A DNA stretch of 64,000 bases from Candidatus Omnitrophota bacterium. Lineage in GTDB: Bacteria > Omnitrophota > Gorgyraeia > Zapsychrales > Fredricksoniimonadaceae. The notes beneath the pieces are model-generated. The model ran no database searches. It was not told the DNA's origin and saw only the letters and a program-made list of their open reading frames with translations. Each line of letters opens with the position of its first letter. The first letter of the stretch is position 1. Positions 5,596 to 63,531 of this stretch are shown here, one piece after another. A program made the position numbers and the translations under genes. Location of the stretch: assembly GCA_015233675.1 (NCBI GenBank), contig JADFXH010000001.1:12563-76562 (forward strand), in the 5' to 3' direction.

Positions 5596-5820
5596 GTTCT
5601 GTCAAAATTTGCCATTAGCCAACCCTGCCTATGGCTAAGGTTATGGTATTATTTCCGAAACGGGATATTTTTGCCGTCCGCTTCGGTTTACAACTAATTT
5701 TTCCTAAAGTTTCTCTTCATTTGGAAAAAATTTGTTGTAAATCCTCGCGGACTTTTGGCAAAAAATCCCTGAATGTTTCGGAAATAACACCATACCTTAG
5801 CCATCGCATTCCTTGACACT
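5596..5820. repeat. Palindromic intergenic element, copy B (scaffold plus family-1 long hairpin 5631-5804)
   Basis: About 96 % identical to 936-1160 (roughly 8 differences). Begins gttctgtcaaaattt and ends ccttgacact. Confidence 0.9.
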
Positions 5821-8235: not shown

Positions 8236-8436
8236 GTTCTGTCAAAATCCGCTTCCAAATGACGCGGGGCCTGTCCTTAGCCTCAACATTAAGGAGCTCC
8301 TCAGGCGGGAGCAACCTTAACAGCAGTTCCGACGGTGATTTTTCCTAAACCGCCCACTTGAGCAGGTGCCGTGCGCTCCTTAACATTGAGGCTAAAGACA
8401 CCCGCTAATCCATGTTTTCATATAACTTTTGACACT
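8236..8436. repeat. Palindromic intergenic element, copy C (same scaffold termini, different hairpin cargo)
   Basis: Begins gttctgtcaaaat and ends cttttgacact. Internal arms ccttagcctcaacattaaggagc (8275-8297) and gctccttaacattgaggctaaag (8375-8397). Confidence 0.8.
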
Positions 8437-8543: not shown

Positions 8544-11540
8544 TTAGCCGGCAGGAACCCCCAACAGCTCAGGCAAATTATTCAAGGGTTTTATCTCGAT
8601 ATCCTTAATATAAAGCCCATGGATTTCAAGGTTCTCCAGCGCCTTCATGTCCATTGGCGCGGCAACAGCGGACTTATCAGAATCCATATCTAAATTCATA
8701 CGATTAGCAGTTAAGTCTATACCACCATTAATCATTGCAGTGCCTTTCACAACTTTCGCTTTTGACTCAGGATGCCCAATTTTAGCTGTGCCTTGAGAAG
8801 TGTCGGCCTCTGCGGTTAATTGCCCCAGATAGCCGGCAACTTTCTTCATAGATGGGCGTCCTTTAGCTTTATGCATTGTCATCTCTTCTCGCAATTTACT
8901 CAAAGATGCTACTACGTCTATGTTCTTAGAGACTTGTGTATCAGAAAGTTCCAGCAAAATGCTGGAATAAATGGTGCGTCCAAGGCTATAAACATCTGAC
9001 TCGTCTATCTTAAAATCCTCTGGCGCTTTAAAATCGCCTGTTCCGGCTATCTGTCTATTCCCTAATATCGAAGCAATTCCCCAGTCAATCAACATCACTT
9101 CCCCTTTAGCATTAACAATAATATTCGAAGGTTTCACATCGTTATGGCTGATCCCCAAATCATGGATATCCCTTAATATCTCAGCTACTCTGGTCAAGAT
9201 TTCAAGACGTTTTAAAAGAGAAATACTGTTCCAAACTTTCGAGAGTGGCACAGCGTTCAAACGCCTGACCCTGATGCTTGAAGCATTTTCAATTCCTTCC
9301 AAATGTAACCAAATCTGATCGTTAGGCATTTTACCCCAAGCAAGAACCCTAGGGACCCCTGAAATATTTTTAAGTTCCAAATATTTTAAATAAGTCAGTT
9401 CATTGATTCCCTCTTCTTTTTTATGAAATATTTTATAGAATTTTGCGGGATCTCCCTGGTCAACATAAACCGCACCCTCCGACTCTTCCCCCAGTATATC
9501 ACCAAGACGCATATCAAAAAGCTGTATGGGACGCTTTGAGTCAAGTTCAATAATAAAATTTCTTTCAAGCTGATCTATCTGCCGGGTGACATTGCCGGCA
9601 GAAGTCATAGCATTATCTTCACGCTCGAGCTTTCCGTTTTTCCCTTCGGTGTATTTTATAGTTTCTCCAAAACCATCAGTAGCTTCTACATTCCATGGCG
9701 CGTTTCCATGTTTTTCAATATAAATAAAAGCGCTTTGCTGACCCGCTAAGGGCATATTATGTTTATAAGTTTTAATTTTCTCGTTATGGAATATTGCGTT
9801 AACTTCATCAAGCGGTTTCCCCGATCCGACATAATAAAGGTTAACAATCTCATTTTCTTTTAAGCCTGAAATTTTTATAAATTTATAAGTTTCCCTGTCA
9901 AGATCAGCAAGATTCTTTCTGGAATCCTTATAAAGATGGCCGACGGTCATTTTGCCTTTTTTATCGATTCTCACCACCGCCACGCATTGTCCGGCCTGAA
10001 TAGTAGATGTAACAAATTCCCCATTTGCAACCGGAGATCTTACTTTACCTTCATAAATTTCTTGGGCTTGACTCTTTTCGCCGGTTAACAAATCAGTTAA
10101 CGTCGTAGGTGTACTATGATGGTTAGGATGTTTTTCATGCACATATTGAACGCCTAACCACAACATTGTTGCCAGCGTAGTTAACAGCAAAACAGTTTTA
10201 GTTACCCTATCAGGATGTCCGTTATTAGCCCCACGAGCAGTCATAGCGACATCTGCTAATTCAACTTTAACCATGGACACTTGAGCTGAGTCAGGAATTT
10301 GGTTTTCCTCCTCAGGAGTCAAAATATTTCCTATTTCTGTCGTATTCATAGCAGCGCTCATCTCGGCCCCACCCGAAAAATATTTTCTTGGGATCATTTT
10401 CTGCGTCACAGGATCGGATTCTTCTTTAATATAGTTGTAAACGCCTTTTTTGAAGGCTTTTAGGTAGCGTTGGTAAATGAACTCAATATCATTTGGCGTT
10501 AGGTTTTTCCCCTGGGGTGCTTTCACATTCAAAGCTATCTCGCTTGGCAACCTGCTTGGCATTAGGCCTTGGATTGAATGGTCGTAATGAATACCCTCTA
10601 CTTTATTTTGATCAATATATTTACGCCCGATAATACTATCCTTCATGCGTTTTTTAAACCATACGGCCAGTATGAGCGAATAATAAACTTGACGCAGGGT
10701 GGCGAAGTTCTTGCCTTCGTTGACTTCCTTTTCTAATTCTGGAATGACAACTTCGCGGATGATTTGGGAAGCGAGGGTATGCATACCGTTATTCCCCTGA
10801 GGAGCTTTCACATTCAACCCTGGGTCACTTGGCAACGTGCTTGGGGACACGTCCCCTTCGGGGACATGTCCCCAGGTTGGCCTTTGGTTTTTTGACAATG
10901 CTAAATAATCCTGCTCAAGCATGACCTTCAATCTTGCCTTAACCACCAACGCCGTGTTGCCGTGTTCATAAACTTTGGCATGTTCCGGCACTATCCACAC
11001 TTTATTAAACGTATTTACCGGGATATCGGTTGTACCGAACTTCTTTTGCGCTTGCTCATATATTCGTTTCCAGAATTGCCTGCCAATTTCCCCTTCCGGA
11101 TAGATCAAACTGGCCGTAATTTGCTTAAGCATATAGTCTTCCGCTAACAAGTCACGGCCCATATCAGTCTGGCCGAAACTTTGCGGAATAATGCGGCTTT
11201 TCTCATAGGGCGATAAATTGACCCATAAATCTTGTTCAGGGGTTGTTAAAGAGGCAAGGAAATATTTGATTAGACGGGTTGCTTTCACATTCAACGGTTC
11301 ATTGGTTGGCAACCGGCTTGGCGTATCCCCTCTGTCTAAAATAAAATCAAATTTGAAAGGATTATCAGGGTGGATTTTTATTCCTTTTAGTATCGGAGGG
11401 TTAAATTCAGGGCTTACATGGACCATCACTCCGGATGAGGGCAAATGAAATTCATCTGCTTGAGCCAATGGAATTGTCCCAAAGGTGTTGACTAAAAATG
11501 CTATAAGAATAAATATATGGACTAATGGGGCTCGCTTCAT
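8544..11540 (-). CDS. Large membrane protein: signal peptide + ~390-aa uncharacterised N-module + TM helix + unknown domain + Hanks-type Ser/Thr kinase domain + GGIDL C-terminal module
   Basis: 998 aa. Kinase catalytic loop HNDVKPSNIIV (DNA about 9125-9160), DWG and APE-like motifs. TM helix VLLLTTLATMLWLGVQYV. The N-module is paralogous to that of 27124..31044. Confidence 0.8.
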   Translation of the reverse strand: MKRAPLVHIFILIAFLVNTFGTIPLAQADEFHLPSSGVMVHVSPEFNPPILKGIKIHPDNPFKFDFILDRGDTPSRLPTNEPLNVKATRLIKYFLASLTTPEQDLWVNLSPYEKSRIIPQSFGQTDMGRDLLAEDYMLKQITASLIYPEGEIGRQFWKRIYEQAQKKFGTTDIPVNTFNKVWIVPEHAKVYEHGNTALVVKARLKVMLEQDYLALSKNQRPTWGHVPEGDVSPSTLPSDPGLNVKAPQGNNGMHTLASQIIREVVIPELEKEVNEGKNFATLRQVYYSLILAVWFKKRMKDSIIGRKYIDQNKVEGIHYDHSIQGLMPSRLPSEIALNVKAPQGKNLTPNDIEFIYQRYLKAFKKGVYNYIKEESDPVTQKMIPRKYFSGGAEMSAAMNTTEIGNILTPEEENQIPDSAQVSMVKVELADVAMTARGANNGHPDRVTKTVLLLTTLATMLWLGVQYVHEKHPNHHSTPTTLTDLLTGEKSQAQEIYEGKVRSPVANGEFVTSTIQAGQCVAVVRIDKKGKMTVGHLYKDSRKNLADLDRETYKFIKISGLKENEIVNLYYVGSGKPLDEVNAIFHNEKIKTYKHNMPLAGQQSAFIYIEKHGNAPWNVEATDGFGETIKYTEGKNGKLEREDNAMTSAGNVTRQIDQLERNFIIELDSKRPIQLFDMRLGDILGEESEGAVYVDQGDPAKFYKIFHKKEEGINELTYLKYLELKNISGVPRVLAWGKMPNDQIWLHLEGIENASSIRVRRLNAVPLSKVWNSISLLKRLEILTRVAEILRDIHDLGISHNDVKPSNIIVNAKGEVMLIDWGIASILGNRQIAGTGDFKAPEDFKIDESDVYSLGRTIYSSILLELSDTQVSKNIDVVASLSKLREEMTMHKAKGRPSMKKVAGYLGQLTAEADTSQGTAKIGHPESKAKVVKGTAMINGGIDLTANRMNLDMDSDKSAVAAPMDMKALENLEIHGLYIKDIEIKPLNNLPELLGVPAG

Positions 11541-14283: not shown

Positions 14284-14306
14284 CTTTCTTTGATTAATCT
14301 AAAGCT

Positions 14307-14350
14307 AAAACTCCCCTAACCCCTCTTTACAAAAGAAGGGGGGAATAAAA
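14307..14350 (-). repeat. Intercistronic CCCCTC stem-loop, copy 1
   Basis: aaaactcccctaacccctctttacaaaagaaggggggaataaaa; one of five alignable copies. Confidence 0.7.
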
Positions 14351-14358
14351 TTTCAATG

Positions 14359-15093
14359 TCATTTATTAAAATGAGCTCTAGCTTCCTCGAGGGATTCAAT
14401 ACTTCCGATATCATACCATTTTCCGGAAAATTGAAAACCATAAACAGTTTTCTTATTCGAAAGCCATTGGATATAACTGCCCGCCGCATCTACCGCTTTA
14501 GATTGGCTTAAATATTCTTCCAAGAAACCAATCGTCTGTTTTGGAAAATAATACACACACATGGCGATTATGCTAGACACAGGATTCTTCGGTTTTTCCT
14601 CAAAGCTTGTAACTTTTTGAGCATTGTCCAATCCTAACACTCCAAATTTAGTCGCAGCACTTATATCCTTAATGTCAAAAACACCAATGGTCACAGCAGG
14701 CGTTTTACTTATCGCAAAATCCATATAAACAGACATATTTTGATCAAAAAGATTGTCCCCTCCAATGACAAGCCAATCCTGAGCAGAGGCTTCCTTTTTC
14801 CAAACAAAACGGATATCCCCGACGGAACCTAAACGTTCTTCCGGCGTATTAGTGCCGTCATTAACAACGCGGACTGGCAAGCCGTGACGGCTCGCCGCCC
14901 ATTGCTGAAATTGAGGTGTGAACTTATTATTACTGACCACAACGATCTCGCTTAAAGGTTTAATATCCTGAAGCTTATCAACCACATAATCGATCAAAGG
15001 CCTTTCACCCACCGGAATTAAAGGCTTAGGGGTATCTTTGATGACAGAGGCTAAACGTGTCCCATAACCTGCCGCTAAAATTAAAGCTTTCAT
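14359..15093 (-). CDS. Sugar-phosphate nucleotidyltransferase (NTP_transferase family)
   Basis: 244 aa. N-terminal MKALILAAGYGTRL signature of glucose-1-P thymidylyl/uridylyltransferase-like enzymes. Confidence 0.75.
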   Translation of the reverse strand: MKALILAAGYGTRLASVIKDTPKPLIPVGERPLIDYVVDKLQDIKPLSEIVVVSNNKFTPQFQQWAASRHGLPVRVVNDGTNTPEERLGSVGDIRFVWKKEASAQDWLVIGGDNLFDQNMSVYMDFAISKTPAVTIGVFDIKDISAATKFGVLGLDNAQKVTSFEEKPKNPVSSIIAMCVYYFPKQTIGFLEEYLSQSKAVDAAGSYIQWLSNKKTVYGFQFSGKWYDIGSIESLEEARAHFNK

Positions 15094-15140
15094 AAACTCC
15101 CCCTTACCCCTCCTTATAAAAAAGAGGGGGAATAAAAAAT
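15094..15140 (-). repeat. Intercistronic CCCCTC stem-loop + SD, copy 2
   Basis: Minus strand reads ccccctcttttttataaggaggggtaaGGGGGAGtttATG. Confidence 0.7.
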
Positions 15141-19043: not shown

Positions 19044-19119
19044 TGGAGCGGCGAATGGGGCTCGAACCCATGACATCCACCTTGGCAAGGTGGCATTCTA
19101 CCAACTGAATTACCGCCGC
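19044..19119 (-). tRNA. tRNA-Gly (GCC), CCA encoded
   Basis: Manual cloverleaf: gcggcgg acceptor, anticodon arm ccacc-ttGCCaa-ggtgg, T arm atggg-ttcgagc-cccat. Confidence 0.9.
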
Positions 19120-19176
19120 ATTATTTCACGCCATTATAAAGAACTTTTATTCAAATCCTCTTGCCTTCTTAAAAAA

Positions 19177-19257
19177 TGGGCGGGAGAGGACTTGAACCTC
19201 CACGGGTTACCCCACATGCTCCTAAGGCATGCGCGTCTGCCATTCCGCCACCCGCCC
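19177..19257 (-). tRNA. tRNA-Leu (TAG), long variable arm, no encoded CCA
   Basis: gggcggg acceptor, anticodon arm catgc-ctTAGga-gcatg, variable arm tggggtaacccgtg, T arm ggagg-ttcaagt-cctct. Confidence 0.85.
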
Positions 19258-19298
19258 ATCTTCACTTAAAAGATAAAGCGGTTAATGCTAAAAAATTA

Positions 19299-19375
19299 TG
19301 GTGACCGACCCGCGACTCGAACGCGGTACCCCTACATTAAAAGTGTAGTGCTCTACCAGGGTGAGCTAGTCGGTC
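19299..19375 (-). tRNA. tRNA-Lys (TTT), CCA encoded
   Basis: gaccgac acceptor, anticodon arm ctaca-ctTTTaa-tgtag, T arm ccgcg-ttcgagt-cgcgg. Abuts the frr stop codon. Confidence 0.9.
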
Positions 19376-19940: not shown

Positions 19941-19982
19941 TAACTCCCCCTGCCCCTCTTTTTAAAAAAGAAGGAAGTTTTT
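19941..19982 (-). repeat. Intercistronic CCCCTC stem-loop + SD, copy 3
   Basis: Minus strand reads uccuucuuuuuuaaaaagaggggcaGGGGGAGuuaagauAUG (frr). Confidence 0.7.
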
Positions 19983-20725
19983 TAACGGACAATAGTACCT
20001 ATTTCTTCGCCGTATATAGCCCTTTTGATGTTCCCTTTTTGCAAAAGATCAAACACAATGATAGGCAGGCTATTGTCCATGCACATGCTGATGGCGGTTG
20101 CATCCATCACTTTCAGATTTTTCTTTAAAACGTCTATAAATTTTAAGCTCTTGAATTTCTTAGCATCTTTATTCTTAAGAGGATCTGCCGAATAAACACC
20201 ATCGACTTTGGTTGCTTTCATGATCACGTCACATCCGATCTCAGTCGCACGTAAAGTCGCGGCTGTGTCGGTCGTAAAATAAGGATTGCCTGTCCCCGCC
20301 ACAAAAATAACCACGCGGCGTTTCTCAAGATGACGTATGGCACGACGCAAAATATACGGTTCAGCAACAGCATGCATTTGAATGGCCGTCATGACCCTTG
20401 TCTGCACACCAACCTGCTCCAGCGCGTTTTGTAAAGCCAAACCGTTCATGACAGTGGCAAGCATGCCCATATAATCAGCTACTGAACGGTCCAAACCAAA
20501 GCGTTTAGATTCGATCAAGCCGCGAAAAATATTGCCGCCACCGACAACGATCGCCATTTCAACGCCAGCCTCATGAACTTCTTTAACTTGGCCGGCTAAC
20601 GAGGCGCACATTTCCACATCAATGCCATGCTGCAGGCGACCCAACAAAGCTTCCCCGCTTAATTTCAGCAATACTCTTTTGTATACAGGAGCTTTATTCA
20701 AAAAAATCCCCTCTTCCTTACTCAC
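19982..20725 (-). CDS. pyrH: UMP kinase
   Basis: 247 aa with [12 protein letters not shown] and [10 protein letters not shown]. Confidence 0.92.
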
Positions 20726-21245: not shown

Positions 21246-21272
21246 GTTAAAATCTCCTTAATAATTTAGTTT

Positions 21273-21312
21273 CAACTCCCCCTGCCCCTCTTTATAAAAA
21301 AGAGGGGAGAAC
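21273..21312 (-). repeat. Intercistronic CCCCTC stem-loop, copy 4
   Basis: Perfect 9-bp stem cccctcttt/aaagagggg. A second small hairpin atccct...agggat lies at 21315-21345. Confidence 0.7.
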
Positions 21313-21353
21313 ATATCCCTATCTTTAACATAAAGAGGGATTCGTGGAGTTTA

Positions 21354-25172: not shown

Positions 25173-26323
25173 TCGTCGCGGGTGAGGCTTCAGGCGATAT
25201 GCGTGCCGCGGGCCTCGCCCGTGCTTTAAAAAATCTTGACCCCGCCCTGCGCCTGAGCGGTATCGGCGGCGAGCATATGCGTCAAGCAGGAGTTGAATGC
25301 TTTACAGACATCACTGAGCTTGCGGTGATCGGCATCACCGAGGTTATTAAAAATTTTAGCCGCATCAAAAAAGTATTTGATCAAACTTTAAAACAAATCG
25401 ATTCCAGTCATCCTGATTGTGTCATCCTGGTTGATTATCCCGGATTTAATCTGCGCCTGGCCCGGGAAATAAAAAAACGCGGGCTAAAGATCATTTACTA
25501 TATCTCGCCCCAAGTCTGGGCATGGAGGGAAAAAAGAATATTGAAGATCAAGAAATTAGTTGACCGCATGATCGTTTTATTCCCTTTCGAAAAAGACATT
25601 TATAGCAAATACGGGATGAAGGTTGATTACGTCGGACATCCTTTAGTGGATGAGATCATCGTGGGTTGCAGCCGCGCAGATGTATTAAAAACAATCGGGC
25701 TTCTTTCAAACAAAACCACCATCGGCATTATGCCCGGCTCACGCGCTAAAGAAGTTGAACGCCACCTGCCCTGCATGCTGGAGGCGGCCCAAAAACTCTT
25801 TAAACAAAACCACGAGCGCCAGTTCATATTGCTCAGGGCCCCCACCATCCCTATGAAAATTATTGAACCAATTTTAAACGAGAACCTATATCCCAAATGT
25901 CATTCCCGCGAATGCGGGAACCTTAAACACATCCCAATTAAAATTTACGATGGACCTGCCTATGATGGGATTAATGCGATGGATGCTGTCATCGTAGCAT
26001 CCGGTACCGCTACCTTAGAAACCGCCCTGCTGGAAAAACCCATGGTCATCATCTATAAAACTTCATGGCTTACCTACGCAATAGCAAAGGCTGTCATCAA
26101 AATCCCTTATATCGGTTTAGTCAATATCGTAGCCGGGAAGAAAATAGCAGAAGAATTAATCCAAAATGAAGCCACCGCTGCCAACATTGCCAATGCCGTT
26201 GAAAGAGCACTCAAGAGGCCTCAAATCGTCGATGAGCTTTCCGCAGTTAAAACATCTTTAGGCAAACCCGGTGCCAGTCTTCGCGCGGCGCGGGTTGTTT
26301 TAGAAGAAATTTCTATCTCATGA
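25145..26323 (+). CDS. lpxB: Lipid-A-disaccharide synthase
   Basis: IVAGEASGD, YISPQVWAWR and ASGTATLE motifs. The more likely start is ATG at 25169, forming an ATGA overlap with the upstream stop. Confidence 0.9.
   Translation: MGTPTKLIMIVAGEASGDMRAAGLARALKNLDPALRLSGIGGEHMRQAGVECFTDITELAVIGITEVIKNFSRIKKVFDQTLKQIDSSHPDCVILVDYPGFNLRLAREIKKRGLKIIYYISPQVWAWREKRILKIKKLVDRMIVLFPFEKDIYSKYGMKVDYVGHPLVDEIIVGCSRADVLKTIGLLSNKTTIGIMPGSRAKEVERHLPCMLEAAQKLFKQNHERQFILLRAPTIPMKIIEPILNENLYPKCHSRECGNLKHIPIKIYDGPAYDGINAMDAVIVASGTATLETALLEKPMVIIYKTSWLTYAIAKAVIKIPYIGLVNIVAGKKIAEELIQNEATAANIANAVERALKRPQIVDELSAVKTSLGKPGASLRAARVVLEEISIS
25899..25921. repeat. REP-like hairpin gtcattcccgc-gaat-gcgggaac inside the lpxB reading frame
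   Basis: Same family as 31260-31284, 53218-53242 and 61447-61470. Translated in frame as CHSRECGN. Confidence 0.7.
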
Positions 26324-27123: not shown

Positions 27124-30100
27124 TTAAACTCCGGCCAAAGTCCCGCCCTTCACAGGCGTCTGGAGCCCCATTAAAGGCCAAACGCTCGTTATAGGTGTTA
27201 TTCTAAAAATCACCGGCGAAAGGCTTTCAATGCCTTCACGCCTAATTCGCGCAACCATGACAGGATCGATATCCATTTCAACACCCTTGCCATCTTTACT
27301 GACCTTCCATTGCATGCCGCCGGAAGTATTTAAATCAATACCTCCTCTAAGATCAGGATTAACAACACGGCCCCTCGAAGCCCTATCAACAGCCATCGCA
27401 GCGTCATTTTTGATTGCACTCTTTGAAAAAAGAGCAAGCAACGCATTCGCCGACCTCTGACAGGGCGATGGGAAAGGAGCCTCAATGCTGGTTTCTTCAA
27501 TATAGCCCCATGCTTGAAGATAATCTGCCCAAGTCTCTATCTTGCTTATTGTCTCCTTATTATCTCTCTTAACCTCGCGTAATATTTCTGGATCGGCTCC
27601 TTTAAGTTTTTTGAGTAATGCAACAAAAGAATCATCAGCTTTCCTTGCCGTGCCTATATCAGGTATTGTGCCCACTGAGAAGTCCCGCATCTGCGCTGTA
27701 TTCGGAATTCCCTTCATTAACTTATTAACCTCTTGAACAATAAGCCCCGTCATGGCAGCGTCAGAAAAAGTAAAATGGAGCGTTTCACCCTCAATGAAGA
27801 CTTTGACTTTTCCGGTCTGCAAGGCTGCAACCTTTTGATGATATCCCTTTTGCAGTTCACTTACATAAACTTCAGGATTCCTAAGAAAAGGATCTATCAC
27901 AAGGCCGAAATTCCCTTCAGACTCAAAAGGAGTTGCGGCATCTTCACGGAAAGCGCTTAATTCATTATCGGGATTGACCCAAAACAAAATGCGTTTGGCG
28001 AGGCTGATTTGATCAATGTTATGCATATCCTCTCTATCAGGCAACTTCACCCATTGCGCTAATCTTTGCAACAATTTCATTTGTTGAACTACAACGGTGG
28101 TATTCAACCCTTCTTTGCCCTTTGCCTCAAGCAAGAATACCCGGTATCCGCGATGAGTATACGTTGCTCCATTTGTATTTATTTTTTTTTGATACTCCGG
28201 GTCATTCGTTACTTCGCGAACGTTTTGGTCATCTATTTCAAAAGAAAAATCCTTCGCCGTCATCGCCGGATTGGGTTTCGCATATGCAGGGATCATTCTT
28301 TCAAATTCCGCAAGGTCCAGCCTGACCACCTTAGTACTTTGGTCGAAGCCTACCCCTAAGACACTCCCATTGAGAGATACAGAATTAACACCTACCAGTC
28401 TGCCAGAGTTATAAATATTTGGACCAGGAACACCTTCCGTAATCAGCCTTGTATGGTCCTCATTGCGATCAAGCATAACATTCCATAAACGACTCCACCT
28501 GTGCAGGGGGTTCTTTGGATAAGCGAAAAAGAACTCGAGCTGGCGCAGCCCTCCTTCCCCTATATCATCGGCAACAAACAACTGTCCCTTAACATAGACC
28601 CTCGCATTGCCTCCCATAACCGGAAGAGAAACGCCAACATTTCTGCCTTTTGCGTTAAATAGTTGAAAATAATTTATACCATTTTTCACTCTAATACCTA
28701 TCTTCATGTTGGGGGCAATAGGGACATCCGGGTCGCCAGGTTTAACCGTAAGCGTAGCCGCGTCTGTCATATTTGACCGATCATCTCCTAAAGCAGCATC
28801 TGATTGACTATATTCTAAAAGCTTTAAAGCGATTTCCTGTGGGGGCAAATCCTGATTTTTATTCACTAGTTCAAGAAGATCATAATAGGAAGCTCCTATA
28901 TTAATCCCTGCGGCCTGTAAATTTTCAATAAAAGCCTGATACACTTTCTGGTAACCGTCTTCAAACTGATCAAAAATATTATGCCCATTACTTTTGAGTT
29001 TATTAATCTCAACCCCCCGTTGCTCCGCCAAGGCCACCATGTCCCAAAATTCAGAATACCATGCAGACGGGCCTTTAAGTAGCGTATTGAACACCCTATC
29101 AAAATCAAATTTATCATCCGGCAGCTTTCTTTTTCCTTTGATCTCTGGAGTCATTTCATTGTGAAGTTTTTGTTTTAACTCTTGCATACCATCAAGATAG
29201 CGGTTTATAATTTTCTTCAACCCCTCTGCCGTCATTGCCGCATTGCCGATGGCTCGACCGAGAGCCGTACCCGGCAAAAGCTTGGCCCGCGCAAAAGTTG
29301 CTTGTATTTTTTGCTCATCAGTGGCGTTTGAATCACGGGCACTGACCTTTAATGTGATCTCCATTAACGGATCTATGGCAGAACCCCTCGGTCTCCATCC
29401 AGAATCTATAAATCTGAAGATCTCATCCAGGCGTGGTTGAAAAATAAACCAGCAGTGGTCTACAACAAGACGCGTAAAATTCTTTTCATGGATTTTGTTC
29501 AAACTCTCTTCTGTCTCCGCCATCTTGATCATTAAATAATTTAAAATTGTCAAATGCACAAATTGCCTCGCGGCAGTTTCTGTCCGATGAAATTGTTTGG
29601 CAATCGCGGGGCTGACATTTATAATGACCTCCCGGATATTCTGCTCAATAACGCTTTGTTCTTGGCCTGTCAATTGACGATTATTCTCAATATCCGTCAT
29701 CCTGAATAAAACACCCATTGACTCCTCAAGAGGCTTAAATATTCTCGGAAACGCCGTCTCAAAATCTACGGAAGATGCCATCGCCTCATCAAAACCAGCA
29801 GCCGGTGAAGGCATTGCCGCGTTAGCGTTATTTGTAACTACACCTGCATTAATGATCACCATGGCCCTATTGGGCAAAGAATCGGACAATGCGGCTACAT
29901 CCGTTGTCATCGCAGGATTAGCCGCAGGAGTGCCTTCGATTAATAACCCGCCAGAGAAATATTTGTGAGGAATCGTTGCGCCCGCCGCGTCCACGTCTTC
30001 CTTAATATAGTTGAACACGCCCTTTTTATAGGCTTTCAGGTATTGTTCATAAATTTGCCGTTTTACTGTCGGATCATTTAAATCAATACCTTTGACCTTG

Positions 30101-31044
30101 GCTTTATTGGCATACACTTGATTGAGCAAGGCTTCTTTAAGGTTTTTCTTGTACCAGCTGGAAAGTATAATTGAGTTGAAAATCTGGCGCAGATTGGCGA
30201 AGTTTTTGCCGGTATTGACTTCTTTTTCGAGTTCGGGAAGGATGATTTCTTTGACGATTTGACTGGCTAAGGAGTTGCTTGGCAAGCGGCTTGTTCCCTG
30301 GGGTGCTTTCAGTTCCAGAGCTTCATTGGTTGGCAGCCTGCTTGGGGACACGGCCCCTTCGGGGACATGTCCCCTGGTTGGCGTCCCTATTTGGCTTTGG
30401 TGCTTTTGCAAGGCCAGATAATCTTCTTCCAGCATTACCTTTAAATGTTGGTCTACCACAAAGGCGGTTTGGTTGTGTTCAAAGACTTCTGCCCTGTCGG
30501 CCATGATCCATACCTTATTAAAGGTGTTGACCGGGACTTGGGTTGTTCCATATGTCTGCCGGGCCTTGGCATAGACTTTATCCCAGAAGGTCTTGCCTAA
30601 CTGTTTCTCCGGATAAATAAGAGAAGCTGTGATTTGTTTTAAAATATAGTCCTGTTCCAAAAGGTCACGCCCCATGTCGGTCTGACCCAATGCTTCAGGG
30701 ATAATTTTGTTATTTTCATAAGGAGATAGGTTGACCCAAACATCTTTGTCAGGGATAGCTAAACTGGCTAAAAAATACTTGATAAGCTTTTCGCCTTCTT
30801 TTTTCAGAGGCTCACCGGACATCTTGTCTTGGCCCACATCCACTATAAAATCAAACAAGAAAGGATTATCTTTGTGAACAGTCAGGCCTTTTATGATCAC
30901 AGGCTCATAGGCAGGACTTAAATTGACCATGGTTCCGGGGGCAGGCAGGCCTAAAACAGAATCGGCATGGGCTTTGGGCAGAGGGCCTAAGGCGGTCAAA
31001 AGAAAACAAAAAATAATTATCAAGTTCAAAATTCTTTTGAACAT
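27124..31044 (-). CDS. Large secreted protein: signal peptide + ~390-aa N-module (paralog of 8544..11540) + ~850 aa of unknown modules + GGIDL C-terminal module
   Basis: 1306 aa. Long identical runs shared with 8544..11540 (LIKYFLASL, GQTDMGRDLL, LKQITASLIYPE, PVNTFNKVWI, PELEKEVN.GKNFA.LRQ, KYFSGG). No TM helix after the signal peptide. Confidence 0.8.
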   Translation of the reverse strand: MFKRILNLIIIFCFLLTALGPLPKAHADSVLGLPAPGTMVNLSPAYEPVIIKGLTVHKDNPFLFDFIVDVGQDKMSGEPLKKEGEKLIKYFLASLAIPDKDVWVNLSPYENNKIIPEALGQTDMGRDLLEQDYILKQITASLIYPEKQLGKTFWDKVYAKARQTYGTTQVPVNTFNKVWIMADRAEVFEHNQTAFVVDQHLKVMLEEDYLALQKHQSQIGTPTRGHVPEGAVSPSRLPTNEALELKAPQGTSRLPSNSLASQIVKEIILPELEKEVNTGKNFANLRQIFNSIILSSWYKKNLKEALLNQVYANKAKVKGIDLNDPTVKRQIYEQYLKAYKKGVFNYIKEDVDAAGATIPHKYFSGGLLIEGTPAANPAMTTDVAALSDSLPNRAMVIINAGVVTNNANAAMPSPAAGFDEAMASSVDFETAFPRIFKPLEESMGVLFRMTDIENNRQLTGQEQSVIEQNIREVIINVSPAIAKQFHRTETAARQFVHLTILNYLMIKMAETEESLNKIHEKNFTRLVVDHCWFIFQPRLDEIFRFIDSGWRPRGSAIDPLMEITLKVSARDSNATDEQKIQATFARAKLLPGTALGRAIGNAAMTAEGLKKIINRYLDGMQELKQKLHNEMTPEIKGKRKLPDDKFDFDRVFNTLLKGPSAWYSEFWDMVALAEQRGVEINKLKSNGHNIFDQFEDGYQKVYQAFIENLQAAGINIGASYYDLLELVNKNQDLPPQEIALKLLEYSQSDAALGDDRSNMTDAATLTVKPGDPDVPIAPNMKIGIRVKNGINYFQLFNAKGRNVGVSLPVMGGNARVYVKGQLFVADDIGEGGLRQLEFFFAYPKNPLHRWSRLWNVMLDRNEDHTRLITEGVPGPNIYNSGRLVGVNSVSLNGSVLGVGFDQSTKVVRLDLAEFERMIPAYAKPNPAMTAKDFSFEIDDQNVREVTNDPEYQKKINTNGATYTHRGYRVFLLEAKGKEGLNTTVVVQQMKLLQRLAQWVKLPDREDMHNIDQISLAKRILFWVNPDNELSAFREDAATPFESEGNFGLVIDPFLRNPEVYVSELQKGYHQKVAALQTGKVKVFIEGETLHFTFSDAAMTGLIVQEVNKLMKGIPNTAQMRDFSVGTIPDIGTARKADDSFVALLKKLKGADPEILREVKRDNKETISKIETWADYLQAWGYIEETSIEAPFPSPCQRSANALLALFSKSAIKNDAAMAVDRASRGRVVNPDLRGGIDLNTSGGMQWKVSKDGKGVEMDIDPVMVARIRREGIESLSPVIFRITPITSVWPLMGLQTPVKGGTLAGV

Positions 31045-31243: not shown

Positions 31244-31284
31244 GTCATTTTGTAAAAGCGGATTCCCGCTTGCGCGGGAATGAC
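31244..31284. repeat. REP-like hairpin (ggattcccgc-ttgc-gcgggaatgac)
   Basis: 8-bp GC stem; fits the pattern ATTCCC-N8-GGGAAT. Confidence 0.7.
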
Positions 31285-31299
31285 AAAATCTATTATGCC

Positions 31300-31319
31300 A
31301 TCCCCGCGAAAGCGGGGAT
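31300..31319. repeat. REP-like hairpin (atccccgc-gaaa-gcggggat)
   Basis: Perfect 8-bp stem with a GAAA loop. Confidence 0.7.
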
Positions 31320-31347
31320 CCAACCTGTTAGCGCGTAGAAAAAAGGT

Positions 31348-41155: not shown

Positions 41156-42028
41156 TTACCAATCCCTAAGCACCGGCCTATCATCTATTTTCTTAGGCAT
41201 ATAATTTAAAAGCTTCTTAGGCTCTTCATTCTCTTTATACTCTTCTAAAAGGTCTTGGGCTTCTTTGCGATCAAGTTCTTTCTGGCCTTCTTCTTTCTGG
41301 TCTCGTGGCTCCTGTTTTTTCTGACCCTGTTGTTGCTTTGCGTTCTGGTTCTTTTGATTGTTCTTTTGGTCCTGCCGCTGTTGTTTTTGGTTTTGACGTT
41401 GTTGTTTCTGCTGTTGTTGTTTCTTCTTCTTTAAACGCTCGATTTCCTTTTTAACAAAATCTTGATTAAATAACGCGTCTTGGTCTTTTGGATTATCCGC
41501 GATCGATTCTCTATAATGGCCTAAAGCCTCCTGCAATGACCTGATGGCTTCATCAACATTGGTATTTTCTTTTTTAATACCTGATTTGTAAAGAACATTA
41601 CCCAAATTATATTCCGCCTTCGGTCTTATCCCAATATTCTTATCCTGAGCAGCCTGCTCTAAATAACCCAAAGCCTTTGAATAATCTCCCTTCTTATACA
41701 AAGTGGTACCAAAATCATATTTAATGACCGATGACTTGTCATCCTGATCTAAAGCCTTTTGATAAAGTTTAAGCGAGTCATCGAATTTGCCTTGCTTGTA
41801 CAAATCATTGGCCTGATTAACCTCGCCAGCTACCGAAGCCCAAACAATTGAAGGGAACGCAATAACTATAGCTAAAAGGGAGTGGGAGAATATAGTTTTG
41901 ATAAGGCCAGCTACCCCACAGGCGCACAGGGGCTGCTTATAATTATAGCCCCGAAGCGCCGAGCTTGTGGGGATGGGGGGCTGGCCGTGAAAAACTATAT
42001 TCTTCCATTCCCTTTTACCGCTACACAT
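41156..42028 (-). CDS. batC: BatC-like TPR protein with a K/Q/E-rich tail
   Basis: TPR repeats (LYKQGKFDDSLKLYQKAL...) and a QQQKQQRQNQKQQ tract. The ATG overlaps the batB stop. The N-terminal 30 aa are encoded by a palindromic element. Confidence 0.7.
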   Translation of the reverse strand: MCSGKREWKNIVFHGQPPIPTSSALRGYNYKQPLCACGVAGLIKTIFSHSLLAIVIAFPSIVWASVAGEVNQANDLYKQGKFDDSLKLYQKALDQDDKSSVIKYDFGTTLYKKGDYSKALGYLEQAAQDKNIGIRPKAEYNLGNVLYKSGIKKENTNVDEAIRSLQEALGHYRESIADNPKDQDALFNQDFVKKEIERLKKKKQQQQKQQRQNQKQQRQDQKNNQKNQNAKQQQGQKKQEPRDQKEEGQKELDRKEAQDLLEEYKENEEPKKLLNYMPKKIDDRPVLRDW

Positions 42029-43028
42029 TTCTTTTCCTTGTCGAAATTAAGGTTTCGGCTAATAAGAATCCAAAGGCCAAAGTCAACGGCCACTGAAAAC
42101 GCTCATCATACAGCTTGGCCATTTTTTCCTCTGCATCATGTTTCTTTAATTTTGATAATTGCCGGTCATATAAATAATCCAAACCAAACTGCGCTCCGCC
42201 GCTTCGGACATAAGCGCCACCTGTTACATAAGCAATTTGCTGTAGTAAGTTTTCATTCAAATGGGATTTTACCACATTACCATCCGCATCTTTCAGGAAT
42301 TCAGTTTGCCACTCAGCATTGGTCACCTGGACCAAATCCCCTTCCCTGGTGCCAACCCCAACCGTAAATATACGCACTCCTTTTTCTTTTGCCTTACGTG
42401 CGGCATCAAAGGCATTGCCCTCTTCTTCTTCCCCGTCGGTCACTAAAATCACCGCCTTATCAGAATCTACCATGCCTTGATAGGCCTTTACACTTTCTTC
42501 AATGGCCTGGGATATATTTGTGCCTCCGCGCGGGATAGAATCAGTACTTAAATCATCAAGACTTAATAAGAAACCGTTGTAGTCGTAAGTTAAAGGACAC
42601 ATCACCATCGCATTCCCGGCAAAGGCGATCAAGCCTATATGGTCCGAACCGTTTAATTTCATAATCAAATCTTTGACAGCAAGTTTAGTCCTCTCAAGAC
42701 GCGAGGGCTTTACATCCTGAGTCAACATGCTTTTTGAGACGTCTATGGCCACCATGATATCCAGGCCATGGCGTTTGACAGGACGCATAGAAAATCCCCA
42801 TTGGGGACGGCATAAAGCAGCAACCATAAACAGGAAAGCCGCCATCAAAAACATGGCTTTTAACCTGTATACTTTCAAACTAAAAGCCTGTGCTATGCCA
42901 TCAATAAGATGCTCTTGAATAAAACGAGACATCATCTTACGGCGGTATTGATAGAATAAATGTAAACCTGCCGCTATCAAAGGCAGAAGCCACAACAGGT
43001 GCCAGGCTTGCGGGTTAGCGAAGATCAT
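42021..43028 (-). CDS. batB: VWA-domain membrane protein BatB-like
   Basis: 335 aa. N-terminal TM helices and a VWA MIDAS motif (DVSKSM). Confidence 0.78.
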   Translation of the reverse strand: MIFANPQAWHLLWLLPLIAAGLHLFYQYRRKMMSRFIQEHLIDGIAQAFSLKVYRLKAMFLMAAFLFMVAALCRPQWGFSMRPVKRHGLDIMVAIDVSKSMLTQDVKPSRLERTKLAVKDLIMKLNGSDHIGLIAFAGNAMVMCPLTYDYNGFLLSLDDLSTDSIPRGGTNISQAIEESVKAYQGMVDSDKAVILVTDGEEEEGNAFDAARKAKEKGVRIFTVGVGTREGDLVQVTNAEWQTEFLKDADGNVVKSHLNENLLQQIAYVTGGAYVRSGGAQFGLDYLYDRQLSKLKKHDAEEKMAKLYDERFQWPLTLAFGFLLAETLISTRKRNV

Positions 43029-45471: not shown

Positions 45472-45646
45472 GAAGGATGGAGAGCTATTATGTATTCGGC
45501 ACATTCAGGAATTTTTTGCCAAAAGTCTGCAAGGTTTTACGACAATTTTGTTCCAAATGAAGAGAATCTTTAGAACAAAATTGTCGTAAACCGTAGCAGA
45601 CGGCAAAAATATTCCGTGCCGAATACATAATAGCTCTCCATCCTTC
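45472..45646. repeat. Family-1 long hairpin, copy D (inverted relative to copies A/B)
   Basis: Outer arms gaaggatggagagctattatgtattcggcac / gtgccgaatacataatagctctccatccttc pair 31/31. Lies between moxR and the DUF58 gene. Confidence 0.9.
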
Positions 45647-46738: not shown

Positions 46739-47272
46739 TTATAAACCGAGCAAAGAACGATGGCCGTCACGGGCTATCTTCCGTGCCAAAGTTTGCACTT
46801 TGTTCTTTAAACGGTCTTTATGGAGCTTCATTTTAGCCGACACTTTTTTATCAAAAGTCGCAATGATCTGGGCCGCTAAAATACCTGCATTCTTGGCACC
46901 ATTAACCGCAACGGTCGCTACCGGAACACCCTCAGGCATCTGTACAATGGATAACAATGAATCCAGACCTCCTATGGAATTGGATGATTTGACCGGCACA
47001 CCAATGACAGGAAGTGTCGTAACAGCGGCTATAACGCCCGGCAAATGAGCTGCCCCGCCGGCACCGGCTATAATGACTTTTAAACCGCGCGAAGCGGCCC
47101 TTGATGCGTAATCAAAGGTCATTTTGGGTGCCCGGTGCGCTGAAATCACCGTGACCTCATAAGGAATACCGAATTCATCCAATATATCCGCAGCAGCATT
47201 CATAAGGTTTAAGTCAGACTGGCTGCCCATGATAATACCGACTAATGGATTCTTCATTTTAAGGCTCTCCAT
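46739..47272 (-). CDS. purE: N5-carboxyaminoimidazole ribonucleotide mutase
   Basis: 177 aa with GSQSDL, SAHRAP and AGGAAHLPG. Confidence 0.9.
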
Positions 47273-47315
47273 AAACTCACCCTTCCCCCTCTTTATAATA
47301 AAGAGGAAGTATAAC
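47273..47315 (-). repeat. Intercistronic CCCCTC stem-loop + SD, copy 5
   Basis: Minus strand reads cuuccucuuuauuauaaagagggggaaGGGUGAGuuuAUG (purE). Confidence 0.7.
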
Positions 47316-47318
47316 TTT

Positions 47319-51879: not shown

Positions 51880-51979
51880 GTTCTGTCAAAATTCTTACAG
51901 GCTAATACTGATATAAAGATTTTAGCCAAAACAAAATATCGATATCAGCCGTCCACGCATTTCATAAAACTTTTGACCC
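51880..51979. repeat. Palindromic intergenic element, copy E (scaffold with a short hairpin cargo)
   Basis: gttctgtcaaaattcttacaggc[taatactgatat...atatcgatatcag]ccgtccacgcatttcataaaacttttgaccc. Confidence 0.8.
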
Positions 51980-53206: not shown

Positions 53207-53217
53207 GAAAAATTCCT

Positions 53218-53242
53218 GGATCCCCGCTTTCGCGGGAATGAC
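53218..53242. repeat. REP-like hairpin (ggatccccgc-tttc-gcgggaatgac)
   Basis: GC stem. Located between the Smr gene stop and the next candidate promoter. Confidence 0.7.
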
Positions 53243-53270
53243 AATTTGAATTTACACACAATATGGTATA

Positions 53271-56618: not shown

Positions 56619-57014
56619 GGTTATGTCAAAAGTTATATGAAAAATGCAATGGACGGCTGACACCGATATGTTCCTCCTGCTAAAATTTGACGTTCACGCT
56701 GGTACCGTTGTTGCCCAAAAAATTGGTCACGCGAAAGCTCCTGCCGAATGCAATGTTGTCAAATTTCTATACGCAGGAGAAACATATCGGTATCAGCCTG
56801 CGCAAAATTTACGTGTTATGCATGAGAAGAGATATTGTTTGCGAAACATTCAGGGATTTTTCGCCAAAAGTTGGCTAGGATTTACAACGAAAATGTTCCA
56901 AATGAAGAGAAACTTTAGAACATTTTTGCTGTAAACCGACGCCAACGGCGAAAATATCCCGTTGAGCAAATAATATCTCTTCTCATGCATAACCTGCAAG
57001 AATTTTGACAGAAC
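56619..57014. repeat. Compound palindromic element, copy F (inverted scaffold carrying two hairpins: 56657-56796 and the family-1 copy at 56815-56993)
   Basis: Left end ggttatgtcaaaagttatatgaaaaatgcaatggacgg; right end cctgcaagaattttgacagaac. Fills the whole spacer between the TPR gene and the substrate-binding-protein gene. Confidence 0.85.
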
Positions 57015-61446: not shown

Positions 61447-61470
61447 GGATTCCCGCTTGCGCGGGAATCC
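61447..61470. repeat. REP-like hairpin (ggattcccgc-ttgc-gcgggaatcc)
   Basis: Perfect 10-bp stem. Located between the lipoprotein gene stop and the next promoter. Confidence 0.75.
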
Positions 61471-61493
61471 ACATTTACAAAAAACTAAGACTA

Positions 61494-62459: not shown

Positions 62460-62516
62460 GTTCTGTCAAAATTCTTGCAGGCCGTCCATTGCATTTTTTA
62501 GATAATTTTTGACACT
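62460..62516. repeat. Palindromic scaffold without hairpin cargo (copy G, apparently unoccupied form)
   Basis: gttctgtcaaaattcttgcaggccgtccattgcattttttagataatttttgacact. Confidence 0.75.
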
Positions 62517-62540
62517 ATCATAGACTAAAATATCATATTA

Positions 62541-62569
62541 ATTCTAATATTTTCAGAATCAAAGGTCAA
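62541..62569 (-). promoter_or_regulatory. Candidate promoter of the Tyr-rich protein gene
   Basis: Minus strand reads TTGACC-17 nt-TAGAAT. This places copy G in the 5' UTR. Confidence 0.55.
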
Positions 62570-63214: not shown

Positions 63215-63298
63215 GCTTTTATTCTACCAAAATATTAAGAATATTGCGGTTTAAATGGTTCTTTCGTATTTACTGGACTACTTTAATTTATGCAACTT

Positions 63299-63467
63299 CA
63301 ATGGACAGCAATTGTATATTCGGAACGGGATATTTTCGCCGTCTGCTTCGGTTTACAACAAAAATGTTCTAAAGATTCCCTTCATTTGGAACATTTTTGT
63401 CGTAAAACCTCGCAGACATTTGGCGAAAAATCCCTGAATGTTCCGAATATACAATTGCTGTCCATCG
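63299..63467. repeat. Family-1 long hairpin, copy H (with degenerate scaffold flanks, about 63263-63475)
   Basis: Outer arms caatggacagcaattgtatattcggaac / gttccgaatatacaattgctgtccatcg pair 27/28. The core aligns with the other copies. Confidence 0.9.
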
Positions 63468-63531
63468 TTGACGCAAATATATATAATTTTTATTATCAAT
63501 TTTATTTATGTGTCCAATGAATAAGAAAGGT

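Follow-up and report, generated by a model that had tools for sequence, protein, structure and literature searches.

The 57-nt sequence at positions 62460-62516 (+ strand), here called S6, lies between a protease gene and a DUF6515-like gene in the 64-kb window (the whole stretch of DNA analysed, 64,000 nucleotides), whose genes are nearly all on the - strand and of housekeeping type. Its left arm, GTTCTGTCAAAATTCTTGCAGGC, stands directly against its right arm, CGTCCATTGCATTTTTTAGATAATTTTTGACAC, with nothing between them. In agreement with the inverted-repeat termini that an initial annotation of this DNA had read in it, S6 contains an 8-bp perfect inverted repeat formed by TGTCAAAAT (62464-62472) and TTTTGACA (62507-62514). 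The 57-mer alone shows no significant fold (MFE -9 kcal/mol, z -0.5 to -0.9 against shuffles).

The recurrence of these termini at other loci, also announced by the initial annotation, is clear. There are perfect copies of the motif GTTCTGTCAAAAT at 5596, 8236, 51880 and 62460 (+) and at 57014 (-), and a further copy, with a single mismatch, at 936; none of 100 shuffles yielded as many near-matches (at most two mismatches). To each of them corresponds a ...TTTTGACA(C) end, and the two delimit units of 57 to 395 nt that we call S1 to S6, plus a degenerate S7, so that the census of the S family amounts to six or seven copies in one 64-kb window. These copies, the hairpins discussed below (H1 to H3) and the promoter next to S6 are as follows:

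936-1160, + strand: S1, 225 nt, between aroK and dprA, 97% identical to S2 over ends and cargo
5596-5820, + strand: S2, 225 nt, with H1 at 5631-5804; it separates the ilvC terminator from the leuA Shine-Dalgarno sequence (SD)
8236-8436, + strand: S3, 201 nt, with the H3 hairpin (ccttagcctcaacattaaggagc...), in the 5'UTR of a class-II aldolase gene
45472-45646, - strand: H1 copy in the moxR-DUF58 spacer, with only degenerate S-like inverted flanks (GTGATAAATTCTTGG)
51880-51979, + strand: S4, 100 nt, with an internally deleted H2, between DUF167/yggU and yqeY, flanked by AATTAAAT direct repeats
56620-57014, - strand: S5, 395 nt, inverted, with H1, a 20-nt diverged left-arm copy and then H2 at caggc|cgtcc, between a TPR gene and znuA
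56655-56798, - strand: H2 hairpin inside S5 (GGCTGAYAYCGATATG...), with 26-nt arms that are 92% complementary
56815-56993, - strand: H1 inside S5, with a GCAGG direct repeat on both sides
62460-62516, + strand: S6, 57 nt, the smallest copy
62541-62569, - strand: promoter of the DUF6515-like gene (TTGACC-17-TAGAAT), upstream of S6
63259-63473, + strand: S7, a probable, degenerate copy of 215 nt, its ends (GGTTCTTTCGTATTT... and ...CCATCGTTGACGC) assigned by eye, carrying H1, between acyltransferase and protease genes

The left end, 13 nt long and reading (G)GTTCTGTCAAAAT, is exact in five of the six copies; the opposite end is of the TGTCAAAA type in all of them, with GGTTATGTCAAAAG in S5, GGTTGGGTCAAAAG in S4 and TAGTGTCAAAA in S2, S3 and S6. 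The mark of the family is this pair of imperfect terminal inverted repeats, roughly GGTTMTGTCAAAAKT at each end (the end motif is also written GGTTCTGTCAAAAT and GGTTMTGTCAAAA), which are short (8-14 nt) and asymmetric. All copies are non-coding, the sole open reading frames over them being chance ones that overlap the hairpins. Five of the six point the same way, a bias that is not significant.

The similarity between copies ranges from near-identity to little more than the ends. S1 and S2 have 96.9% identity along 224 nt that take in the ends as well as the interior. S6 shares with S5 its left arm (22 of 22 positions identical) and most of its right arm (31 of 34); the 33-nt right arm of S6 is found again at 56623-56655 with a single mismatch in 33, where none would be expected by chance. 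An alignment of S3 to S6 presents S6 as S5 minus one internal block, and S4 as S5 from which both the H1 block and the interior of H2 are missing. In the same alignment, what S3 has in common with S5 and S6 is limited to the 13 nt of the left end and some 25 nt of the right arm, including 8415-8434, which is 100% identical to 56643-56624 of S5.

Hairpin interiors of the elements

Common ends enclosing differing hairpin interiors agree with the modular nature that had been proposed for the family. The proposal that three unrelated hairpin families fill one and the same internal junction, caggc|cgtcc, was not supported. Only H2 (the ctgaYaYcgatat hairpin) occupies exactly this junction, in S4 and S5, while the H1 of S5 sits after CTTGCAGG and is followed by 20 nt resembling a diverged left arm, and S1, S2 and S3 have different inner arms that lack both caggc and cgtcc. 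H2 and H3 had also been taken for independent elements; neither turned up away from the shared ends, whether in the 64 kb analysed or in related loci totalling 1.4 Mb. Since S4 has lost the interior of H2, internal deletion does occur in the S family; S4 is in this way derived from the S5 type, and the same could hold for S6. The possibility, raised beforehand as an objection, that the shared flanks are parts of one long repeat with internal deletions thus holds in part, namely for S4. S6 would be either a minimal element without cargo that transposed as such, or an S5-type copy after deletion of its unstable palindromic interior, both readings being compatible with the data.

H1, the hairpin of about 175 nt, is separable from the S ends, as the initial annotation had it. 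Besides five copies in the window, it is present in one relative (L006) and, in a diverged form, in another (L035), two other Omnitrophota species in which S ends do not accompany it; searches with an HMM and a covariance model found no further copy in 1.4 Mb of relatives. The L006 copy occupies the aroK-dprA spacer, which harbours H1 in the window too; in L006 it is turned the other way and has another outer stem. At L035 6470-6600, part of the 3' arm of the diverged H1 occurs a second time as a tandem duplicate ~60 nt downstream. The H1 core is kept in at least three Omnitrophota species, with LeuA sequences 68-83% identical to that of the window. Its density differs, five copies in 64 kb of the window versus two in 1.35 Mb of the relatives, and all five window copies lie inside S-type or S-like ends, which fits a spread of H1 in this genome as a passenger of S. 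As for the H1 block of S5, the GCAGG repeats that flank it would be explained equally well by nested insertion and by slippage deletion.

The structure of H1 combines fixed and highly variable parts; S2, an element that carries it, folds to -104 kcal/mol (z -13). An asymmetric internal loop (CTTCGG opposite TCCTCG) and a TGAAT bulge on the 3' side are constant, whereas the outer stems, of 26-31 bp, are nearly wholly different between copies and each 97-100% self-complementary; 27 of 65 pairs carry compensatory changes on both sides. G-U mismatches are roughly as frequent as A-C ones, and the orientation with respect to transcription is mixed, H1 occurring in both orientations although nearly all genes of the region point one way. 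This argues for a DNA palindrome kept symmetrical at the DNA level and not for a strand-specific RNA. 6S-like or other RNA genes were likewise rejected, there being five copies in both orientations, and Rfam 15 at gathering score returned only three tRNAs in the window, with H1 and H2 as sub-threshold look-alikes of long miRNA-precursor hairpins. The three tRNA genes are clustered at 19047-19375 (-). A bolder reading, to which we attach little probability, is that H1 would be a new kind of hairpin element, read by a structure-specific protein, with arms re-templated from each other in each round of copying, which in this genome would have hijacked a MITE as a vehicle into the 5'UTRs of housekeeping genes.

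Orthologous spacers in related Omnitrophota

Presence and absence were compared at orthologous loci of other Omnitrophota species. Among 80 hits to the LeuA of the window, the best has 91% identity, and the closest come mostly from uncultured Candidatus Omnitrophota or from MAGs labelled Planctomycetales, and the gene order fba-ilvC-leuA-...-aroK-dprA is kept in dozens of relatives. The ilvC-leuA spacer measures 83-105 nt in five of them (L003, L007, L008, L010, L011), where it consists of a terminator, ~10 nt and the SD, versus 317 nt in the window, where S2 sits between terminator and SD. Similarly, the aroK-dprA spacer has 5-32 nt in seven relatives versus 266 nt in the window (with S1), the acyltransferase-protease spacer 2 nt in L083 versus 317 nt (with S7), and the moxR-DUF58 spacer 5 nt in L096 versus 277 nt, the whole of which, with its H1 copy, is extra. 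S1 and S2 are nearly identical in ends and cargo alike and occupy two loci that are both empty in relatives, which implies that what is copied is the unit bounded by the ends. At the protease-DUF6515 locus, the window minus the 57 nt is collinear with L082 and L083 from promoter to SD. These two relatives share the promoter and the short leader without the 57 nt, so that S6 is itself an insertion in a 5'UTR.

The S ends were absent from ~1.3-1.4 Mb of related leuA loci, with one possible exception in the carB-purE spacer of L096. The scaffold 22-mer had no match in GTDB representative genomes, a scaffold 21-mer gave one unrelated A+T-rich match in JGI metagenomes, and viral contigs scanned for the empty scaffold and the H1 core yielded only chance matches in coding DNA. 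The absence of S from related loci, GTDB representatives and JGI metagenomes points to a young, lineage-specific family. The possible exception, at L096 9403-9425, reads gtcgTGTCAAAAGTTTTATGAA; its 16-nt core, TCAAAAGTTTTATGAA, matches the S4 right arm without a difference when reverse-complemented, and could represent the solo end of an S-like element.

Other palindromic elements have settled at the same spots in relatives, in L001 and L004 at ilvC-leuA and in L001, L005 and L006 at aroK-dprA. Such spacers are permissive landing places in the clade, in which various palindromic elements have settled time and again at identical positions. The long palindromes at the ilvC-leuA position (L004 9537-9948 and L001 9835-9975) are different, unrelated ones, the one in L004 being made of interleaved or nested inverted repeats with arms of up to 90 nt. 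A GTAG-tagged palindrome (CGTAGAGACGCCATTTATGGCGTCTCTACG), of a form typical of REP elements associated with RAYT transposases, is found in intergenic spacers at L001 14533-14614, in the L005 aroK-dprA spacer and at about 13540 in L096.

The S copies lie in transcribed spacers, just upstream of ribosome-binding sites, as had been stated. The distance from element end to SD, claimed to be short, is 3-14 nt in five copies and about 58 nt for yqeY. Ancestral spacers consist of 5-30 nt only, or of a terminator and then about 10 nt, and this closeness to the SD follows from their leaving no other room. Of the promoters that the initial annotation had placed upstream of elements, the one at 62569-62541 (-) is well supported, its motif and spacing being kept in L082 and L083 (TTGACC or TTTGACC, 17 nt, TAGAAT-like); its position upstream of S6 places S6 in the 5'UTR. 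The one upstream of the 8236 element (TTGCAG-16-TGtTATAAT) is plausible from relatives, although a simple scan made no call. On the other strand, at 62509-62536 (+), the TTGACA of the S6 right end and a flanking TATCAT 16 nt away compose an 11/12 match to a sigma-70 promoter, a putative outward promoter that would run antisense to the protease gene.

Among other functions considered for the scaffold, a sigma-54 or sigma-70 promoter inside it on the gene strand was discarded because of unfit spacing and of the large hairpins that interrupt other copies, a metal-regulator operator next to znuA because its half-sites lie at variable distance, and an integron attC site because neither the core motif nor the surroundings, which lack cassettes, agree with one.

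Origin of the family and alternative explanations

We consider S6 to be probably the smallest member of a non-coding, non-autonomous, MITE-like family that is lineage-specific and has variable hairpin interiors. The ends would be recognised by a transposase, possibly an IS5-family enzyme, whose gene would lie in another part of the genome, and which would move whatever stands between them. Copies would survive only where harmless, in the stretch from a promoter or terminator to the following ribosome-binding site or in very small intercistronic gaps, and are in consequence co-transcribed with the downstream gene. H1, a separable palindrome of other species too, would most likely have been captured and spread as a passenger.

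Several sequence features are consistent with transposition. Direct repeats of 5-8 nt flank S4 (AATTAAAT), S5 (CAAAAA), S3 (ACATG) and S6 (ACTAA), and their summed score was reached by 1 of 2000 flank shuffles; their length and offset from the ends vary, and S1 and S2 lack a clean repeat. Target duplication at S copies is accordingly best described as likely; duplication of a TA target was rejected as inconsistent across copies. With regard to a parent, none of the 58 open reading frames of the window is a transposase gene, and the window holds no full-length parent element. IS5-family elements of related Omnitrophota (L096, L097-L103) have inverted repeats, GGGRCTGTTGCAAAAT, to which the left end of S can be aligned, as in GGGGTTCTGTCAAAATCC / GGGTTCTGTCAAAATTCTT against GGGGCTGTTGCAAAATCC / GGGACTGTTGCAAAATTCCTT; the best pairs reach a shuffle p of 0.0005-0.005. 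One such insertion sequence, at 13579-14816 of L096, is bounded by GGGGCTGTTGCAAAAT and codes for a transposase with DUF772 and DDE_Tnp_1 domains that scores 137 bits against the NCBIfam IS5 model (cut-off 140); related copies have GGGACTGTTGCAAAAT ends. The likeness to these sequences, which belong to other species, concerns the left end only, the S right end having no alignment to IS5-family ends and BLAST finding no internal similarity of S elements to the IS5-family copies. S is thus possibly of IS5-type origin, a lead and not a demonstration. ISL3 as a parent was rejected, its GGCTCTTCG ends (PMC6305408, PMC11448079) matching poorly.

S resembles bacterial MITEs derived from insertion sequences (PMC10969869, PMC3184786). 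Like S, these are small and non-coding, have terminal inverted repeats and short flanking direct repeats, reach many copies in intergenic transcribed DNA, are present or absent at orthologous sites and show size variants generated by internal deletion. S differs in that the window contains no cognate transposase, its inverted repeat is only 8-14 nt long and asymmetric, the interiors of its subfamilies are mutually unrelated, and one of them, H1, is an element in its own right.

The initial annotation had instead seen in S6 an unoccupied docking site, the 57-nt scaffold being a target in which independent hairpins would insert site-specifically at the centre, the apex of a weak palindrome, and S6 a target not yet occupied. 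The occurrence of H1 without S ends in L006 and L035, the GCAGG repeats around the H1 block of S5, the arms of S6, nearly identical to those of S5 with no interior, and the nested palindromes of L004 would all suit such a scenario. However, relatives with the same promoter and gene lack S6, which is itself inserted; the exact junction is common only to two H2 copies, one of them a deletion derivative; the H1 of S5 lies away from it; the inner arms of S1, S2 and S3 differ; H2 and H3 never leave the shared ends; and direct repeats round a hairpin equally mark slippage deletion. We regard this scenario as unlikely and S6 as selfish DNA of an ordinary kind, not as a docking site that was there beforehand.

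A hairpin-recognising single-strand DNA system, of REP/RAYT type or derived from IS200/IS605, might also make and move the repeats, dispensing with a classical cut-and-paste transposase. Long hairpins as interiors, the H1 loops and bulge kept while the stems covary, as a structure-reading protein would require, the GTAG-tagged REP-like palindromes of relatives and the single orientation of five of the six copies could be read in its favour. Nevertheless, that orientation bias is not significant and H1 occurs both ways amid nearly one-way genes; the 57-mer lacks a significant hairpin; and whereas IS200/IS605-derived elements lack inverted ends and duplications and have subterminal hairpins and a 4-5 nt target conserved beside one end, the features common to S copies are terminal inverted repeats, with flanking direct repeats and no tetranucleotide conserved beside either end. 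REP/BIME units, for their part, are G+C-rich palindromes of 20-40 nt with a GTAG or CGTC tag and a RAYT, whereas the S ends are A+T-rich and form no compact palindrome. Such a system is in our opinion improbable. Least credible of all, and very improbable, is a cis-regulatory leader, RNA or DNA, selected to control translation or stability of the next gene: one end always lies close to the SD, the copies are downstream of promoters and comparable elements alter mRNA fate, but all relatives examined have the same leaders without S, the SD proximity is forced by the very short ancestral spacers, one copy has the inverse orientation, no common function links the genes that follow (dprA, leuA, aldolase, yqeY, znuA, DUF6515), and the leader with S6 in it is no more stably folded than shuffles (z +0.56).

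Returning to the MITE-like family, its behaviour is close to that of other palindromic repeats of bacterial genomes. The likeness to ERIC noted in the initial annotation is upheld as a comparison of behaviour only. Like S, ERIC (or IRU) sequences are imperfect palindromes in transcribed intergenic regions, in both orientations, with shorter and longer forms that differ by internal blocks; unlike S, in which only the ends are common, they have one consensus of about 127 bp, and they belong to enterobacteria or vibrios, a different phylum, with no sequence relation to S by eye. Correia elements of Neisseria, of about 100-160 bp, also have inverted ends and full-length and internally deleted forms, are inserted beside genes and co-transcribed with them, and have ends that can create promoters, as predicted for S6 by the 11/12 match; neither their 26-bp ends nor their TA duplication is present in S. 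Both ERIC and Correia elements alter mRNA fate, ERIC being able to affect mRNA stability (PMC10969869), and by analogy S copies might have an effect on mRNA. If they do, core genes such as leuA, dprA, znuA and the aldolase gene would be affected.

The S elements add a repeat family, possibly descended from an IS5-type sequence, to a phylum of which metagenomes supply nearly all that is known; the literature searched yielded no published account of similar elements in it. Palindromic elements of this kind break assemblies and can mislead searches for regulatory RNAs.

The window also contains other repeats. A separate 45-nt repeat, a CCCCTCTTTAnAAAAGAGGGG hairpin with conserved flanks, occurs in short spacers after genes at 14306-14350, 15093-15137, 19941-19985, 21271-21315 and 47272-47316, and looks like a shared terminator-type or REP-like unit. 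A third family, GGATTCCCGCTTGCGCGGGAATGACAA (31260-31322, 53217-53244, 61447-61473, 25887-25918), is a compact G+C-rich palindrome resembling REP/BIME units, present once as an inverted pair, at 31260-31322. Within coding DNA, segments of 59-87 nt are 75-81% identical between 10420-11321 and 29996-30382, which belong to a 998-aa kinase-domain gene and a 1306-aa gene with no Pfam match, both containing paralogous modules. Finally, a 49-nt inverted repeat (41851-41899 / 41991-42039), 78% complementary, spans the junction of TPR and VWA coding regions.
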